From contig OX597825.1 in the NCBI GenBank assembly GCA_951406725.2, positions 86,800,001 to 86,864,000 on the forward strand: a stretch of 64,000 bases of DNA, in the 5' to 3' direction. Shown one piece after another: positions 25,742-60,409 of the stretch. Below the pieces are notes generated by a model. It made no database searches. It saw only the letters and a program-made list of their open reading frames with translations, and was not told the origin of the DNA. The stretch's first letter is position 1, and every line of letters begins with the position of its first letter. Source of the stretch: Octopus vulgaris (Eukaryota). Both the position numbers and the translations under genes were made by a program.

Positions 25742-25847
25742 CGTATATGTGTGTGTGTGTGTGTATGAGAATGTGTGTGTGTATAAATATATATATTATG
25801 TATATATTTATATATATATATATATAAATATACACACAGACACAAAA

Positions 25848-26078
25848 GGCGGCGACCTGGCAGAAACGTTAGCACGCCGGGCGAAATGCATAGCCGTGTT
25901 TCGTCTGCCGTTACGTTCTGAGTTCAAATTCCGCCGGGGTCGACTTTGCCTTTCATCCTTTCGGGGTCGATAAATTAAGTACCATTTTCGCACTGGAGTC
26001 GACGTAATCGACTTAATCCCCTTGCCTGTCCTTGTTTGTCCCCTCTGTGTTTAGCCCCTTGTGGGTAGTAAAGAAATA
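25848..26078 (+). mobile_element. Full-length tRNA-derived SINE, family B (~230 bp)
   Basis: ggcggcgacctggcagaaacgttagc..gagttcaaattccgcc..gtcgactttgcctttcatcctttcggggtcg..gtgggtagtaaagaaata. Confidence 0.9.
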
Positions 26079-26166
26079 TATACACACATACACAGCAGCA
26101 TACTTTTGTATATATATGTAATGATATACATTCACAAACATACACTAAAAAGTTTTATGCCCTAAA

Positions 26167-32367: not shown

Positions 32368-32444
<77 letters not shown>

Positions 32445-32455
32445 TATATAGAAGG

Positions 32456-32506
32456 AGCTTCTACAGGACTAGAACTGTTTCATTCAAGAGAAATCTTCAG
32501 GAAGCT
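32456..32506 (-). ncRNA. Type I hammerhead ribozyme motif (mirror copy)
   Basis: Exact reverse complement of 32868..32918. Confidence 0.8.
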
Positions 32507-32867
32507 AGTTAACAAGAATTGTATTGGCATTTATACATTTAGGCAGGTTTAAAGGGGTGGTGGTGGGGGACTTTTTGGGGGTAGGCATAGCGCAAAAAAA
32601 TCATACTTGGGGGAGTGGTCAAGGAGTCAGTGGTAAATTAGATAGAAGAATAAATAAAAGAATAAAAAAAAAAAAGGAGAATAAAAAAAAAATATATATA
32701 GAAGAATAGAGTTTTAGGTAAATAAAATTTATCTAATTTACCACTGACTCCTTGACCACTCCCCCAAGTATGATTTTTTTGCGCTATGCCTACCCCCAAA
32801 AAGTCCCCCACCACCACCCCTTTAAACCTGCCTAAATGTATAAATGCCAATACAATTCTTGTTAACT

Positions 32868-32918
32868 AGCTTCCTGAAGATTTCTCTTGAATGAAACAGT
32901 TCTAGTCCTGTAGAAGCT
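32868..32918 (+). ncRNA. Type I hammerhead ribozyme motif
   Basis: AGCTTC-CTGAAGA-tTTC(tctt)GAAt-GAAA-CAG(ttctagtc)CTG-TA-GAAGCT: 6-bp stem I, canonical CUGANGA and GAAA, 4-bp stem III, GUA cleavage triplet. Confidence 0.8.
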
Positions 32919-33001
32919 CCTTCTATTTAATAAATTAATTTTACTCTGCTATGTATTGAGTACCTTATTTACTGTGGTTAACCCCGAATCAACCCGGGAC
33001 C

Positions 33002-33053
<52 letters not shown>

Positions 33054-52561: not shown

Positions 52562-53112
52562 TCTCCGTATTCCGGGTGGTTATCTAATGTGTAACGTAGT
52601 GATACCTTCGCAAAGATTATCTCTGTATCATGTAATTTAGTAATATCTCTCAACGTTACGGTGTTCCTCTAACACAATATAGCGTCTTGCCAATGTAATA
52701 GAGCGACATTCCAGTTTGCCAATCTACATATAATATTATGTAGGGACCCTCAACCGCTCGTTTAATGTAATTTACCGATGCTCCGGTGTTCATTTAATGC
52801 AATTGAACGATAAACCAGTTTTTCAAATGCTCCACTGATCGTATAATGCAATGAATTGACGTCTTACTGTTTTAATGCTCGTTTAATGCAGTTTAGCAGC
52901 TGAAAGAAGTCGAAAGCAAAAACAACGAATACGAAAATCAACATATTGTATTGGAATATATTATTGGAGGGAAACTAACTTGTAAATCGCTACGATTTCT
53001 CTAACTCCCCATAGAACATAAAAAAGGAAACCCTTGACTTTACCCCCGCCCTACACATACACATACATCCCCTTATGTATATATATATATATGGATACAT
53101 ATACACATATAC

Positions 53113-53171
<59 letters not shown>

Positions 53172-53232
53172 TATGTGTATATATATACATATATATATAC
53201 ACACAGACACAGACACAGACACACACACACAG

Positions 53233-53265
<33 letters not shown>

Positions 53266-53849
53266 CATATACATATTTATGTGCATATTTGCATGTGAAT
53301 GTGTGTATTTGTGTGATTGTGTGTGTGTGTGTGTTGTATTAAATCTACCACCTAAGCTTGCAGACAGAAAGACAGACAGCCATACACACAGTCAATAGAT
53401 TTTCCATGGCAAACTTTGCTGATTGTAAAGTATTTTGTTGCCGTATCATCTGTGATCGATTTAGTTTTAATACGATGGTAAAATTCTTGGCACAATGCTG
53501 TTTGGAAAAGCTGCTTCATTGAAATACTGTTTTAATGCTATTACTGTGGATGAAAATCTGTGATGTAATTTTGTGGCCGACTTGACGTTCGCCCTCCGGT
53601 TCAACGTGAATATTGTCGAAATTCTTTGCAGATGAACGATCGTCATTTAAATCCGAATCTAATCTGTTCCAATATTCAATATAGAGACGGAAAATGAAAG
53701 AGGATAATCCATGAGATAAAAATGTTACCTAATATTCAGAATGTGCTGCGTTAATTACTTTATATAAATTGGCAACAGCTCAGAGACGATGCTGGGTTCG
53801 AGTTTCGGCCAAAACGAAACACGTGATACGTCTACGTGTCCTCTTTCTT

Positions 53850-53990
53850 ATTTTACGCGTTTCAGTTATTACACTGCGGCCATGCTGGGGCACCGCTTTG
53901 AAGAATTTTGAGTTCAATGAGTCAACGCCAGGACTTTTTTTCTTAAGCCTGGTACTTATTATATCGGGTTCTTTTGTCGAACCGCTACGT
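53850..53990 (-). mobile_element. SINE family A, 3' fragment
   Basis: gtttcagt..ctgcggccatgctggggcaccgc..tttgtcgaaccgct. Confidence 0.7.
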
Positions 53991-54285
53991 AAACACATAA
54001 CAATACATACAAATATGGATGAACACACACACACACACATGAACATACAGATGCGCACAATTGTTCATTTCTTCAGATTTTGGTACTTGAAAGTCTTGTC
54101 ATGTTTCTTTCTCCGAAGAATTCCTCCGAGGAAGAATTTCCAGAACAAGGAAACAACACTAGTCTTGAAAGTTCCACAACGGGAATAAACAAACAACCTA
54201 TTCTACACCATTCACTACTTAGGTCTAAGTTATTACTTTTACCTTTTGTTAATGATAATAATAATAATAATAATCATAATAATAC

Positions 54286-54328
<43 letters not shown>

Positions 54329-54444
54329 ATATATACATATAACATATGTATATATATATGTAGATATATGTATATATATACATATATATACTTATATACA
54401 CATATATATATATATATTGATACACAAATATAAATATATGTATG

Positions 54445-54481
<37 letters not shown>

Positions 54482-54493
54482 ATATATATATAT

Positions 54494-54723
54494 TTTTCTT
54501 TACTACCCACAAGGAGCTAAACACAGAGGGGACAAACAAGGACAGACAAACGGATTAAGTCGATTACATCGACCCCAGTGCGTAACTGGTACTTAATTTA
54601 TCGACCCCGAAAGGATGAAAGGCAAAGTCGACCTCGGCGGAATTAGAACTCGGAACGTAACGACAGATGAAATACGGCTACGCATTTCGCCCGGCGCGCT
54701 AACGTTTCTGCCAGCTCGCCGCC
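54494..54723 (-). mobile_element. SINE family B, full length
   Basis: Reverse-complement match to 25848..26078. Confidence 0.9.
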
Positions 54724-54727
54724 TATT

Positions 54728-54771
<44 letters not shown>

Positions 54772-54800
54772 AAAAAAGGAGATGTCGAACACGAGTGGTG

Positions 54801-55307
54801 ATATATAAAAAAGGAAATGAAGAAAATGCTGACAAATAATTGAAGTAATTTAAGTAATTTAATTAGGTGAAAGTTCTTTTTACCGGTTGCGCATTTGTTA
54901 TGCTTATCAAAATATAAAAGAGAGATTAGAGTCTGTCTCTTATATGTGAAAAAAAGAGGCTCCAGAGTTGTTTGGGATTTGCTTGGTTTCGCGCCTAAAA
55001 TTTTGATTGGTCATTATGAAGGGGTCACGTGAATGTTTGAATGGAAGTTGGTGTTGGGGTAAGAAAAAAGGCTCCAGAGAAGTTAAAATTTGGCTAGTGT
55101 CCCGCCTAAAATTTCTTATTGGCCATAATAAAGAGGTCACGTGAATGTTTAGAATTTTCGAAAATAGTGTTGTTGAAAATTCTTATTGTTCAGGCTGGTC
55201 AGTAGACGTCATGTGGATATTTTAAATAGCTTTTTAGCGCGTAGTTAGGGAGTGTATTTTCCGCTTGACTGGATAATTAAGTTCGTTTAGAACAGGGAGA
55301 GCTGTAT
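54801..55307 (-). repeat. 3' pseudo-LTR of the PLE (inverted repeat arm 1)
   Basis: Reverse complement of 57947..58453. The ORF track gives an identical 66-aa translation at 54940..55140(-) and 58114..58314(+). Confidence 0.93.
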
Positions 55308-55633
55308 GTATGTATGTATGTGTGTGCGCGCGCGCGCGCGTGTGTGTTTATATGTATGTTGGGGCGCGCGCGCGTGTATATATGTGTGTGTGTGTGGGTA
55401 AAATTTTCAATATTTATAGTTCTGCTGGCCTTGTGCCTGTATCGGGAAGCAACGTATTTGTGTGAAGTCAATATTTACAGCCATTTCCAAAAAATAGTGT
55501 TGGATGTTTTGCACCCGTATTCAATTATGTGTATGTGTGGAACCATATATTTGTGTGTGTCATGGTGTTAATATCTGGGTAAAGGTGTGTGTAGGGTGTG
55601 TGCAGGTGTAAGTGTGTTTGTTGTGGGTTCGTG

Positions 55634-57781
55634 TTAGGGGCATGTGTTTAGAAGTGGTCTGTATTTATTAATAAGGTGGGATTCCATGGTTATTCGCTGG
55701 GTATGAGTGGCATTGTCTTTAAATTTGTAGAGGGGAAAGATTCTAAAATTGGGATGGAGTTGTGCGGCACAGGTATCAATATGTGCACTAAATTCTATTT
55801 TTCTATATTCCTGTATTTTTATTTGGGATCTGTGGACAGTCATGCGTTGGCGGAGGCTATTTTTTGTTTGGCCTATGTAGTGTTCATTACAGCCCGAGCA
55901 AGTTAAGACATATACTAGGTTTTCTGATGCGCATGTGAAGTTGTGTTTTACTGTGAAACGTTGTCCTTGTTTAAAAAGGAATTCCGGACCTTCTATTAGG
56001 TTGATGCATATACCACAGTTGGGTCTATTGCATTTGTTTACTGTGGGTTTAGTTGTTGTGGTTGGCAGTACTTTGGCATTTGTTAGGATGGTTTTCAATG
56101 ATTTGGGTTGCCTTTTGCTCTTTATGATTTCGTGTGTTAGGAGGATTTGGTTCATTCTATGGTCCTTTTGTAATACAGGAATGTTCTGGAGGATGGTGTC
56201 AAAAGCTTCATTGTTGAGGGGGTTGTGTGTAGAGATGTATGGTAGAGTATGGGGTTTCGATGTAACAGGTTTAGGGCATCTAAGTTCCTGCGTGCTGAGT
56301 TTTAGGGCGCGTTGGATCCCATTGTCAATTAGTGACGTGGGGTAATCCCTGCTTGTTAATGTGCCCTTGAGTTCTTGTAGACGTAAGAGACGGGTGTTTT
56401 TATTGGAGACTATAGTGCAAATTCTCTTGGCTAAGTTGTAGGGAATGTTAATTTTAACGTGTCTAGGGTGGCATGAATTGAAAGGGAGGTATTGCTTGGA
56501 GTCTGTGGGCTTGTAGTATATGTCTGTTTCTATTTTTTTGTTGTGAATTTTAATGAGGATGTCGAGGAAGGGAATTTGTTGAGGGCTGTATTCCATTGTG
56601 AAAATAATGTTTGTGTTGAGCCCATTTATAAGAGTGTGAAATTCGTTAAGCTTCTCGACGGTTTCGGGCCAAAGGATGAAGCAGTCATCAAGATATCTCT
56701 TCCAGTTCTTCTCTATGTGTGTGTGGAGAGTGGTGCCAAATTGGTTAAGAACGTTATTATAGAGGGTGATTTCCAGGTATCCCATGACTAAGTTGGCGTA
56801 AGTGGGAGCTGTTTTCGTTCCCATTGCCGTCCCTGATTTCTGTCTGTAGAATTTGTTGTTGAAGGTGAAGAAATTATTCTCTAAGATGAATTTGAGTCCT
56901 TCTAAAATAAATTCCTTTTTGATGCGGTGTGGGAGTTCGTTGGAGTAATTATCCAGCCAGAATTGGATAGCTTCTATTCCTAGGTTGTGGGGGATGTTGG
57001 AGTAAAGATTGACTACATCGAATGTTACTAGCAGGGTTTGTTCAGCAAGAAGTGTATTGGGGAGGTGGTTGAGCATATCTAGATCGTCCCTTATGTAGCT
57101 TTTAATGTGTTTGAGGAACGGCTTGAGAAGGGTATCAATGAAGTTGCTAAGGCGGTGGGTTTCGCAAGCGGGACCTGCTATTATAGGTCTCAATTTGAGG
57201 TCATTTGGTGAGGGGACATTGATTACAGAGTTTGTGGCTTCCTTGCATGCCTTACTTATTAATTCGCTTTTATGAATTTTGGGAATACCGTAGAAGAGGC
57301 TGGTTTTACTAGTGAAATTTGTGATGAAGTTGAATTCTTTGTTAGTGAGTTCTTCTTTGTGGGGGTTGATCAGGGTTTTTAAGTTTCTCATAATTTTCTG
57401 TTGATTGTAGTGTTCAGCCTTTTCGTAATATGTTCCATTTTCCAAGGTGGAGAGTGCTAAGTTGATATAGTATTCTGTCTCCATTAAGACTACTGCACTT
57501 CCTTTATCGGCCTCTTTAATGGTGATAGATCTTTCATTTTTTAATTTGTTTAATTCTTCCCACTCTTTCTTGTTGAGGTTTGGTTTGGGTTTTGGTTTGT
57601 GTAAGTGTTGGTAGGGGAAGTTTGTAATGTGCTCACAGAATTCGTCTAGGATTTTATTTCTACCTTTTCGTGGGGTGTAGTTGCTTTTATTTCTAGCTAG
57701 TGACTCATCCTCTTTGTGCTGGTCGAATAGTTCCTCACTAAGTCGCAATTTTCTACAAAATTCTGTAATGTCTTCCTTCAT
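55634..57781 (-). CDS. PLE polyprotein: reverse transcriptase + Cys-rich linker + GIY-YIG endonuclease (probably Neptune-type), N-terminus frameshifted and truncated
   Basis: 715-aa ORF with PLE motifs IKEADKGSAVV, FYGIPKIHK, LRPIIAG, TFDVVNLYSNIP, GTAMGTKTAPTYANL, RYLDD, FLDI, SCHP, CNRPNCGIC and NLVYVLTCSGCNEHYIGQT...RMTVH. The upstream motif LLSKGLKFTPTP lies in another frame at about 57800..57840. Confidence 0.95.
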   Translation of the reverse strand: MKEDITEFCRKLRLSEELFDQHKEDESLARNKSNYTPRKGRNKILDEFCEHITNFPYQHLHKPKPKPNLNKKEWEELNKLKNERSITIKEADKGSAVVLMETEYYINLALSTLENGTYYEKAEHYNQQKIMRNLKTLINPHKEELTNKEFNFITNFTSKTSLFYGIPKIHKSELISKACKEATNSVINVPSPNDLKLRPIIAGPACETHRLSNFIDTLLKPFLKHIKSYIRDDLDMLNHLPNTLLAEQTLLVTFDVVNLYSNIPHNLGIEAIQFWLDNYSNELPHRIKKEFILEGLKFILENNFFTFNNKFYRQKSGTAMGTKTAPTYANLVMGYLEITLYNNVLNQFGTTLHTHIEKNWKRYLDDCFILWPETVEKLNEFHTLINGLNTNIIFTMEYSPQQIPFLDILIKIHNKKIETDIYYKPTDSKQYLPFNSCHPRHVKINIPYNLAKRICTIVSNKNTRLLRLQELKGTLTSRDYPTSLIDNGIQRALKLSTQELRCPKPVTSKPHTLPYISTHNPLNNEAFDTILQNIPVLQKDHRMNQILLTHEIIKSKRQPKSLKTILTNAKVLPTTTTKPTVNKCNRPNCGICINLIEGPEFLFKQGQRFTVKHNFTCASENLVYVLTCSGCNEHYIGQTKNSLRQRMTVHRSQIKIQEYRKIEFSAHIDTCAAQLHPNFRIFPLYKFKDNATHTQRITMESHLINKYRPLLNTCP

Positions 57782-58103
57782 TTCGTAGTAGTTTGGACGT
57801 GGGGGTTGGTGTGAATTTCAGACCTTTGGAGAGTAAGTTGAGAAGGTTGGGGTTGGGTTCTGTATTGGTTAAATTGATGACTTTAATTAGTTTATGTTTC
57901 TCTTCCCTGTCCTGTGTTATTTTGTTTGCCTGTATCTGTGTGCTGTATACAGCTCTCCCTGTTCTAAACGAACTTAATTATCCAGTCAAGCGGAAAATAC
58001 ACTCCCTAACTACGCGCTAAAAAGCTATTTAAAATATCCACATGACGTCTACTGACCAGCCTGAACAATAAGAATTTTCAACAACACTATTTTCGAAAAT
58101 TCT

Positions 58104-58316
58104 AAACATTCACGTGACCTCTTTATTATGGCCAATAAGAAATTTTAGGCGGGACACTAGCCAAATTTTAACTTCTCTGGAGCCTTTTTTCTTACCCCAA
58201 CACCAACTTCCATTCAAACATTCACGTGACCCCTTCATAATGACCAATCAAAATTTTAGGCGCGAAACCAAGCAAATCCCAAACAACTCTGGAGCCTCTT
58301 TTTTTCACATATAAGA
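58104..58316 (+). promoter_or_regulatory. Duplicated promoter-like module in the pLTR (E-box, CCAAT, E2F-like, then TATA-like)
   Basis: Two diverged units with a 112-bp period. TCACGTGAC at 58110 and 58222, CCAAT at 58132 and 58244, TTTAGGCGGG / GGCGCGAAA, and TATAAGA at 58310. Confidence 0.45.
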
Positions 58317-58332
58317 GACAGACTCTAATCTC

Positions 58333-58379
58333 TCTTTTATATTTTGATAAGCATAACAAATGCGCAACCGGTAAAAAGA
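58333..58379 (+). ncRNA. Variant minimal hammerhead-like motif in the pLTR (mirror copy at 54875..54921, minus)
   Basis: tctttt..TTGATAA-GCAT(aacaa)ATGC-GCAA-CCGG-TA-aaaaga has type I HHR order, a perfect 4-bp stem II and a palindromic ACCGGT stem III. The core deviates (U3/A8, C13). Confidence 0.5.
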
Positions 58380-58439
58380 ACTTTCACCTAATTAAATTAC
58401 TTAAATTACTTCAATTATTTGTCAGCATTTTCTTCATTT

Positions 58440-58559
<120 letters not shown>

Positions 58560-58750
58560 GTATATATATATACATATGTATCTGTATACATATACACACA
58601 TACCTACACACATACACACAGTCGCACACATCATATATATGTGTATATATATACATATGTAAGCTGGTACAAGAAACTAATTGCTATTGTCACTGCAAAA
58701 TAATACATAGCAAAAACAAGAACAACAAGAACAACAACAACAACAACAAC

Positions 58751-58787
<37 letters not shown>

Positions 58788-59173
58788 GCAGCAAGAATAA
58801 AAAAAGGTAAAATGGAAAGTAGTGTTCCATTTGTAGACTCTGTGCATGACGTTATCTGATGCGAGGTGTAAACACCTTTCTAATTCTGTAGGGAAATAGT
58901 TGAGCTTGTCTTAGGATTCACAGATTAATGCTTATAAAATGAAGAAGATGCGGGTGATAAAATGCAAAGCGATTCTGTGCATGCGAAGGTGAGAATTTCC
59001 TCTGGAAACCTTCTTTTTGGTAGCGTTTCTCTGATTAATTCTTCCACAACCAAATAAGTTTCTCTCTGGCTTCTCTCCTCTCACAGCTTTTCATGTCTTT
59101 TTTTTTTCATCGCTTCTTTCGAGATAATTTAATTGACATCTATTAATGTCTATTTCACTAAACACAAAAAAGC

Positions 59174-59257
<84 letters not shown>

Positions 59258-59264
59258 TTATATG

Positions 59265-59357
<93 letters not shown>

Positions 59358-60409
59358 ACGTATGCATGTACGTGTGCGTATGTGTATACATATATATATT
59401 CACATAAGTAAACACACACACACACGCGCACACACATATATATATATATAAATATTACACAGACACACGCAGACACACATTTAGTTGTGTATCAGTACAA
59501 ATCATAGAACTACGTACGCTTTCTTTGACTATAAAATATATTTTTATGCGGTGTGTCGAAAAATACATGAACACATACATATCTATGTATTCATGTATTT
59601 TTTGACACAAGTACACACAAACATACATACACAATACACACGAATATATATATAATACGTCTGTATATATATGTATATATATTTATATATATATAATACG
59701 TGTGTATATATATATGTATATGTATATATGTATATATATGTATATATGTATATATATGTATATATGTATATATATACATACATATCTATTTATCTATCTA
59801 TGTATCCATTTGTCTATTTATTTATCTCTTTATCAATCTATTCTTTCTCTCTCTCTCTCTCTCTCTGTCTGTCTCTCTCTCTCTCTCTACACACACACAC
59901 GCAAATACGGAAATATATAGACGCATACCTACAATAATATAATTACAGGAACATACCAACACACCAACTGTTTTACTACATCTATAATTACCACCGCTGT
60001 TCACGTCACACCTGTTTTGCTGTTAAACTTTTATTCCTATATTCCTTACGTTTATTGTTTCCGATTTCGTATTATTATTTATTTATGAAATTTTATATTC
60101 CCGTGAGAATGTTCCTTATGTCATTTCATTAAATTTACTCCTGAAATTGTGTGCAAAAGATAAAAAAAATATCTGCTATTTTACTTGTTGATTGAATTAG
60201 GTTCGAAGCCCCTCCGAGAAAAATATCTTAGAAATTTATTGTCGAATGAGAAATATAAAATATATTTCGTCTTATATTTATTATTTATTATATTTTGCGT
60301 TGTCTGTTTTTGGTTTTAATGTTACATCATAACCTTTCGTAATTGGTCTTGTGCAAGAGTTTAACACCGTTGCAGAAAGATAAAAGCAAAACGCTACTGA
60401 AAAACGAAC

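Follow-up and report, generated by a model that had tools for sequence, protein, structure and literature searches.

A Penelope-like element (PLE) in the Octopus vulgaris genome carries, in its pLTR, a stretch that recalls the core of a minimal hammerhead ribozyme and departs from the consensus at positions 3, 8 and 13. Is this a working ribozyme variant, the remains of a ribozyme, or something else? A sequence-only reading had offered two answers: an undescribed hammerhead variant missed by standard descriptors, or a structural signal for RT recognition that has lost catalysis. We followed these up in the window, the whole 64,000-nucleotide stretch analysed (contig OX597825.1, positions 86,800,001 to 86,864,000).

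A putative hammerhead-derived motif in a young Penelope-like element

As typed from its domain architecture, the host is a young Neptune-type PLE (EN+). The single ORF joins an RT, a Cys-rich, Zn-finger-like linker of a kind common to Nematis too, plus a GIY-YIG nuclease at its C terminus (Pfam matches RVT_1, E 2.7e-7, and GIY-YIG, E 1.3e-5), and it has 901 protein relatives at E<=1e-20, with a best identity of 61%. The features discussed below are as follows:

54771..54800 (-): 30-nt "tail", at one end of the element only, followed by (TA)n
54801..55307 (-): 3' pLTR arm, no mismatch against the inverted arm over 507 nt
54881..54910 (-): identical copy of the core in the 3' pLTR, ORF sense (54910-54881 in reading direction)
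55634..57817 (-): PLE ORF of 727 aa between stops, coding for RT, Cys/His linker and, at the C terminus, the GIY-YIG nuclease
57801..57884 (-): N-terminal RT residues in a different frame (tblastn of P0002, P0005, P0012)
57947..58453 (+): inverted, 5'-truncated pLTR arm flanking the ORF on its 5' side; 100% identity with the 3' arm over 507 nt
58099..58316 (+): two ~95-nt modules, 79% identical, plus TATAA at 58310; CACGTG, CCAAT, TTTAGGCG[CG]G
58308..58342 (+): predicted upstream hairpin
58333..58343 (+): 5' strand of stem I, with only 2 in-register A-U pairs
58344..58373 (+): putative core derived from a hammerhead, copy in the inverted pLTR arm; stem II pairs with probability 0.76-0.998
58374..58379 (+): 3' strand of stem I, AAAAGA

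The element sits in a (TA)n microsatellite, with one arm inverted and 5'-truncated and a 30-nt tail on one side; inverted truncated pLTRs, one-sided tails of 30-40 nt and microsatellite targets are PLE insertion signatures (PMC8557442; PMC11167929, available sections). The N-terminal RT residues continue in another frame, which implies a frameshift near 57801-57805, either a mutation or an assembly error; the frame is otherwise open around this break near the ORF N terminus. The segment 58099-58316 is a promoter-like part of the pLTR by its sequence, and we take its motifs to be E-box, CCAAT, E2F and TATA elements. A sigma-70 promoter scan was set aside, the host sequence being animal.

On the plus strand, the first core strand reads U3-U4-G5-A6-U7-A8-A9, from U3 at 58344 to A9 at 58350. 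Stem II is a 4-bp helix of GCAU (58351-54) and AUGC (58360-63) around a 5-nt AACAA loop. The second core strand (G12 at 58364, C13 at 58365, A14, and A15.1 at 58367) leads into helix III, with CCGG at 58368-71, U16.1 at 58372 and A17 at 58373, the palindrome being ACCGGU. A cut would be expected between 58373 and 58374, after GUA. In the minus-strand copy, U3 is found 724 nt beyond the stop codon, and A17 lies 80 nt short of the element's shared end. Re-reading both strands confirmed the letters and coordinates originally reported for the two copies. Since the two arms are identical over 507 nt, both copies of the motif amount to one observation. An alternative register, in which the C is an insertion, was dropped, as the GAAA-CCGG-UH of relatives aligns with it position by position.

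Searches with descriptors and models

Our descriptor placed no constraint on position 13 or on the 3-8 pair. Composed after the motif had been seen, it matched only the two motif copies in the 64-kb window, 1/2000 shuffles of the pLTR and 0/2000 shuffles of the 833-nt 3' region. A covariance model built from 15 motifs of relatives, none from the window, ranked the motif top among 5 matches when applied to the 3' region (17.6 bits, E 0.0011); over the whole window, with 18 matches, it came third to fourth (E 0.081). The training motifs scored 29-44 bits and apparent chance matches in other loci 17-19 bits; because 17.6 bits falls within this chance-like range, the model by itself is weak, and position and architecture carry the case.

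As had been supposed, standard descriptors miss the motif. Rfam misses it too: a scan of 53000-60000 with a limit of E 10 gave 136 matches, mostly microsatellite sequence against miRNA models, and not one was a hammerhead. In viral contigs, none of 187 pattern matches was confirmed as a related locus, and three matches to a gapped pattern, which lacked the palindrome and U16.1-H17, were taken as chance.

A known 3-8 pair and an unusual position 13

Published PLE minimal type I hammerheads share with the window motif a place in the pLTR, the ORF sense, G10.1-C11.1 and a palindromic helix III; S. mansoni(3) has the same U3-A8 pair and UUGAUAA core. In contrast to them, the window motif has C13 rather than A13, no extra nucleotide after A9, and a stem I of 2 bp versus the usual 4-5. 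PLE hammerheads work as slow dimers.

In the first core strand (N3-U-G-A-N-N8-A), positions 3 and 8 of the window motif form a Watson-Crick pair, U3-A8. The available part of Cervera and de la Pena (PMC4209133) gives ~1,300 U3-A8 matches in S. mansoni and a UUGAUAA core in the published alignment. Natural U3-A8 is likewise known from Perreault et al. 2011 (PMC3088659, in the text available), where covarying 3-8 pairs are active and rare core changes leave low but real activity; the variants there resemble ours in U3-A8 covariation and comprise A6C, insertions A6a and U13a, and U15.1-A16.1, with no A13 substitution in the sections available. The suggestion that C3U and G8A compensate for each other therefore stands: the 3-8 pair stays Watson-Crick, the swap is published in PLEs, and it recurs in four related loci.

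The second core strand is a different matter, since a G12-A13-A14-A15.1 sequence is required and the window motif has C at 13. In the accessible portion of PMC4209133, 56/56 published PLE motifs keep GAAA, one of them as AGAAA, and the motifs in the part of Craig et al. File S2 at hand keep it likewise. Among the sources consulted in part, PMC2837043 records sporadic A13 changes in 2/198 cricket repeats, and PMC4075628, citing Nelson and Uhlenbeck 2008, puts the cost of A13 changes at 10-100-fold, below that at most core positions. We found no natural family fixed for C13 in the literature searched, a provisional result given its partial coverage. The portions available of PMC6765202, PMC9901934, PMC7151607, PMC13481778, PMC11014351, PMC6155905, PMC12192606, PMC13282606 and bioRxiv 2026.07.22.740005 contain no C13 variant. 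A13C was rightly called unusual, with GAAA in all credible related motifs and in the 56 published examples. Of the "undescribed variant", then, one half falls, as U3-A8 is already reported in PLEs, and the other half, a family-wide C13, is provisionally without parallel in the literature searched.

Related loci retain A13

An alignment of 37/121 proteins led to 96 loci, 79 of them from metagenomes and 17 from MAGs with host contamination. The descriptor gave 43 matches in these loci, 41 with GAAA (~32 distinct motifs); the 2 without GAAA both lie within RT coding matches and have U-G as the 3-8 pair. No credible relative with an altered position 13 was found with the descriptor in the 96 loci. 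Three extra motifs with a very short stem II were read by eye: helix II is cut to 3 nt in L011 (1868-1887) and to 2 bp in L002 (3757-3781) and L003 (4102-4127), in cores with a stem I of 5-6 bp and a 4-nt palindrome.

In the closest loci (39-52% protein identity), the ORF is followed by a minimal type I hammerhead whose stem II is short and whose palindrome has 4 nt. The nearest Neptune-type relatives examined (L002-L005, L007, L008, L011, L012, L080, L081, L084) resemble the window motif in 3' position, short stem II and 4-nt palindrome. CCGG, as in the window, is found in L002, L003 and L007, U3-A8 in L012 and L084, and A17 in L004, L012 and L081. Unlike the window motif, all of them retain A13 and have a stronger in-register stem I. 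The motif shares place, strand and build with these relatives, which bears out its identification as derived from a hammerhead and located in a PLE pLTR. L001, L010 and L082 had no motif in the downstream DNA examined.

U3-A8 occurs in four related loci in all (L012, L023, L052, L084); a U-A match in L066, antisense and inside an RT match, was left out of this count. A3-U8 is present in L021 (L021:1969) and G3-C8 in L056 (L056:117), and with these added, all four Watson-Crick 3-8 pairs are found among the related loci. In a quick RT tree with 51 rows and no named reference elements, U3-A8 and the other exchanges lie on separate branches among C3-G8 elements, suggesting repeated origin. Counts of changes on this quick tree were discarded, no C3-G8 group being defined. 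Also discarded was a covariation result on alignment A3 (87.9% paired versus 51.4% shuffled), which is circular because the rows had been picked for those pairs.

In L104, L106 and L113 (G004), several distinct hammerhead motifs lie on both strands within 1-3 kb of each other. L080-L096 are animal-type PLE sequences in prokaryotic MAG contigs, with some relatives named symbiont proteins; host contamination is the probable source.

Stem II and the palindrome are predicted to fold, stem I is not

Stem II, closed by G10.1-C11.1, was predicted in every context (probability 0.76-0.998). The palindromic helix III, A15.1-U16.1 and an H17 (A17) are all present, and a homodimer through ACCGGU was predicted with probability 0.91-0.95, which, together with CCGG in three relatives, agrees with the role of dimer palindrome assigned to this sequence earlier. 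The in-register stem I, by contrast, has 2 A-U pairs with 4 H-bonds and a predicted probability of ~0. As the sequence-only reading noted, it is poor; indeed it is the weakest of 16 compared, and the 15/15 relatives have 2-6 pairs and 6-15 H-bonds. Next weakest are two close U3-A8 relatives, in which stem I is all A-U. Helix I usually has 4-5 bp, and a 2-bp G-C helix is reported for D. virilis (PMC4209133, available part). A slipped stem I of 6 bp can be drawn (58333-38 with 58374-79) and puts 5 extra nt before U3. In long transcripts, the predicted hairpin at 58308-58342 would capture the 5' strand of stem I (probability 0.996-0.999 in 58290-58453).

Through C13 a further 6-nt palindrome, UGCGCA, arises immediately next to ACCGGU (58361-58372). 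The competing UGCGCA dimer was not favoured (probability at most 0.001). Neither was a G5-C13 helix that C13 makes possible (0.005-0.28).

C13 is shared by another family copy

For a survey of the family, we compared contigs of 4 runs, out of 24 listed, on 57947-58446 (three organism codes). None of the runs is recorded as RNA; X6 may be. Across these ~500 nt, 10 variant sites were listed in the 4 runs and none fell in 58338-58411, where the 3% listing threshold is inflated. For the 30-nt core the count is 0/10 versus 0.6 expected if sites were spread evenly, under the same inflated threshold. Indeed, depth is inflated over the motif and raises the threshold there, so that minority A13 copies would be hidden.

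Record 28 of run X6 covers 58206-58367 at a depth of 345.9, which equals the full depth just upstream. Its sole difference is at 58280; it therefore carries U3, A8 and C13, with C13 two letters from the contig end. X5 record 21 and X14 record 8 span U3-A9 unchanged. Thus C13 is not private to this copy: it is present in a family contig of an independent sample, X6. The letter at 57977, in comparison, is private to this copy, the alternative standing at full depth in 4/4 runs.

Summed contig depth over 58338-58405 rises ~10-30-fold from 58338 in 4/4 runs. We did not take this peak as copy number: the X5 ratio, 137.5k/4.6k = 30, is the value expected if the graph broke up completely into 31-mers, which would account for the size of the peak. 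Several contigs end loosely within 58338-58342, and one of these ends is an inversion junction. The clustering of branches at 58338 might stem from short, truncated copies, from sister subfamilies, or from a transcript start close to 58339, a position 29 nt past TATAA. A sister subfamily at ~1/10 of the depth or less is longer by ~49 nt after 58321 and by six A at 58337; when these are joined, its A-run appears to replace the pyrimidines and would remove the slipped stem I strand.

A strongly attenuated hammerhead as the preferred reading

The motif would work like, or descend from, a PLE minimal hammerhead; as it fails the A13 feature, we class it as a candidate member. On balance we think it somewhat probable that it is a Neptune-type PLE pLTR hammerhead in strongly attenuated form, of weak or negligible activity and under relaxed selection. 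Descent from a hammerhead is supported by place and build as in relatives, by CCGG in three of them, and by the choice of this motif in the 3' region by a model made from relatives only. In such a ribozyme stem II would fold within each RNA, two RNAs would pair through ACCGGU to form helix III, and the cut would follow GUA. With the two copies on opposite strands, the dimer partner would come from another RNA or from a tandem copy elsewhere. C3U/G8A keeps the tertiary pair, which suggests that selection still acted at the time of its fixation; activity may then have been lowered by A13C and by stem I loss, probably to a slow or negligible level. The family could have kept spreading because target-primed reverse transcription needs no cut.

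The PAc hammerhead (Anolis Poseidon; Frangieh et al. 2024, PMC11167929, cited here from its available sections) offers a model. It too is a PLE pLTR hammerhead, one with weak, protein-dependent cleavage that is dispensable for insertion: it cleaves only with protein, core mutants insert normally, and a +20 template without the first core strand is still used. PAc differs in belonging to the Poseidon clade, in its canonical C3-G8 core, in overlapping the ORF start and in its demonstrated activity; the window motif is known from sequence. The inserting PAc mutants, the cost of A13 changes, the weakest stem I, the A-run of the sister subfamily and the high-copy Naiads without canonical hammerheads (PMC8557442) would all fit attenuation. 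Against it, G5, A6, A9, G12, A14, A15.1-U16.1 and G10.1-C11.1 have all survived, as have stem II and the palindrome, whereas prolonged decay would be expected to leave less, and the 4 runs list no alternative letter in 58338-58411, where the listing threshold is inflated. Moreover, L011, L002 and L003, almost without stem II, show that weak helices are tolerated, and since proteins can assist PLE hammerheads, activity may be higher than folding predictions indicate.

These last points lead to the first alternative, in which the U3-A8/C13 core is family-wide and cleaves usefully as a protein-assisted dimer, C13 being tolerated or tuning the rate. We regard this as possible, though rather unlikely. 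All other core positions are canonical or compensated, the X6 contig with C13 accounts for the whole upstream depth of that run, A13 is among the milder core positions (PMC4075628, as available), and the accessible texts on PAc (PMC11167929) and on natural core variants that can stay active (PMC3088659) provide precedents. However, GAAA in 41/43 related matches, the other 2 in RT coding, and in 56/56 published motifs implies that selection normally forbids a change at position 13; stem I is the weakest of the 16; and given the youth of the family (10 variant sites listed over 500 nt), fixation of C13 may be a founder effect.

Loss of catalysis with retention of the fold, for RNA dimerisation through ACCGGU or for RT recognition ~80-110 nt upstream of the start of reverse transcription, seems improbable to us. 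It would suit the intact stem II and palindrome beside the altered A13 and stem I, the closeness of the motif to the 3' end and tail, and the ~10-30-fold depth rise from 58338 in 4 runs, if this placed the segment in many contexts. That rise is, however, what graph fragmentation alone would give (30 in X5), and the G5-C13 helix is not favoured. The RT-recognition signal in particular gains no support from the Poseidon clade, an indirect comparison, where, in the available part of PMC11167929, core mutants insert normally, the +20 template is still inserted, and initiation lies in a separate AC-rich stem-loop. A chance look-alike in an AT-rich pLTR, or a set of DNA-level promoter motifs, is very improbable: the 17.6 bits lie inside the range of apparent chance matches and Rfam is silent, but position, strand and architecture are those of relatives, shuffles match in 1/2000 and 0/2000 cases, and the element holds no better candidate elsewhere.

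Should the core prove to cleave usefully, it would be a substitution at a position not seen varying in PLE hammerheads in the literature searched; the core consensus would be too narrow, and GAAA descriptors would undercount hammerheads and misclassify some PLE families as ribozyme-less. Should the attenuated hammerhead be inactive, the family would show a PLE that goes on spreading as its ribozyme is lost, in the direction of the hammerhead-less state of Naiads. Cleavage by PLE hammerheads is slow and, in the one reconstituted system, dispensable for insertion; a young multi-copy family with an altered core base is a natural test of why PLEs keep them. Whichever the result, its interest is mainly to specialists in ribozymes and retroelements.

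Other insertions in the window

A second, shorter fold-back insertion lies at 32441-33007 in (TA)n, with motifs at 32456-32506 (-) and 32868-32918 (+). Each arm has a canonical core with C3-G8, GAAA and a U-U at the base of stem II, an ACAG/CUGU helix III and a 6-bp stem I, with extra sequence at a single end. Neptune-type queries found no ORF in it. These motifs resemble the Hydra-clade motifs in the part of Craig et al. File S2 available.

The PLE insertion itself is adjoined by a dispersed repeat, 54451-54727, which is 88% identical to 25844-26120. We presume the pair to be SINE-like.
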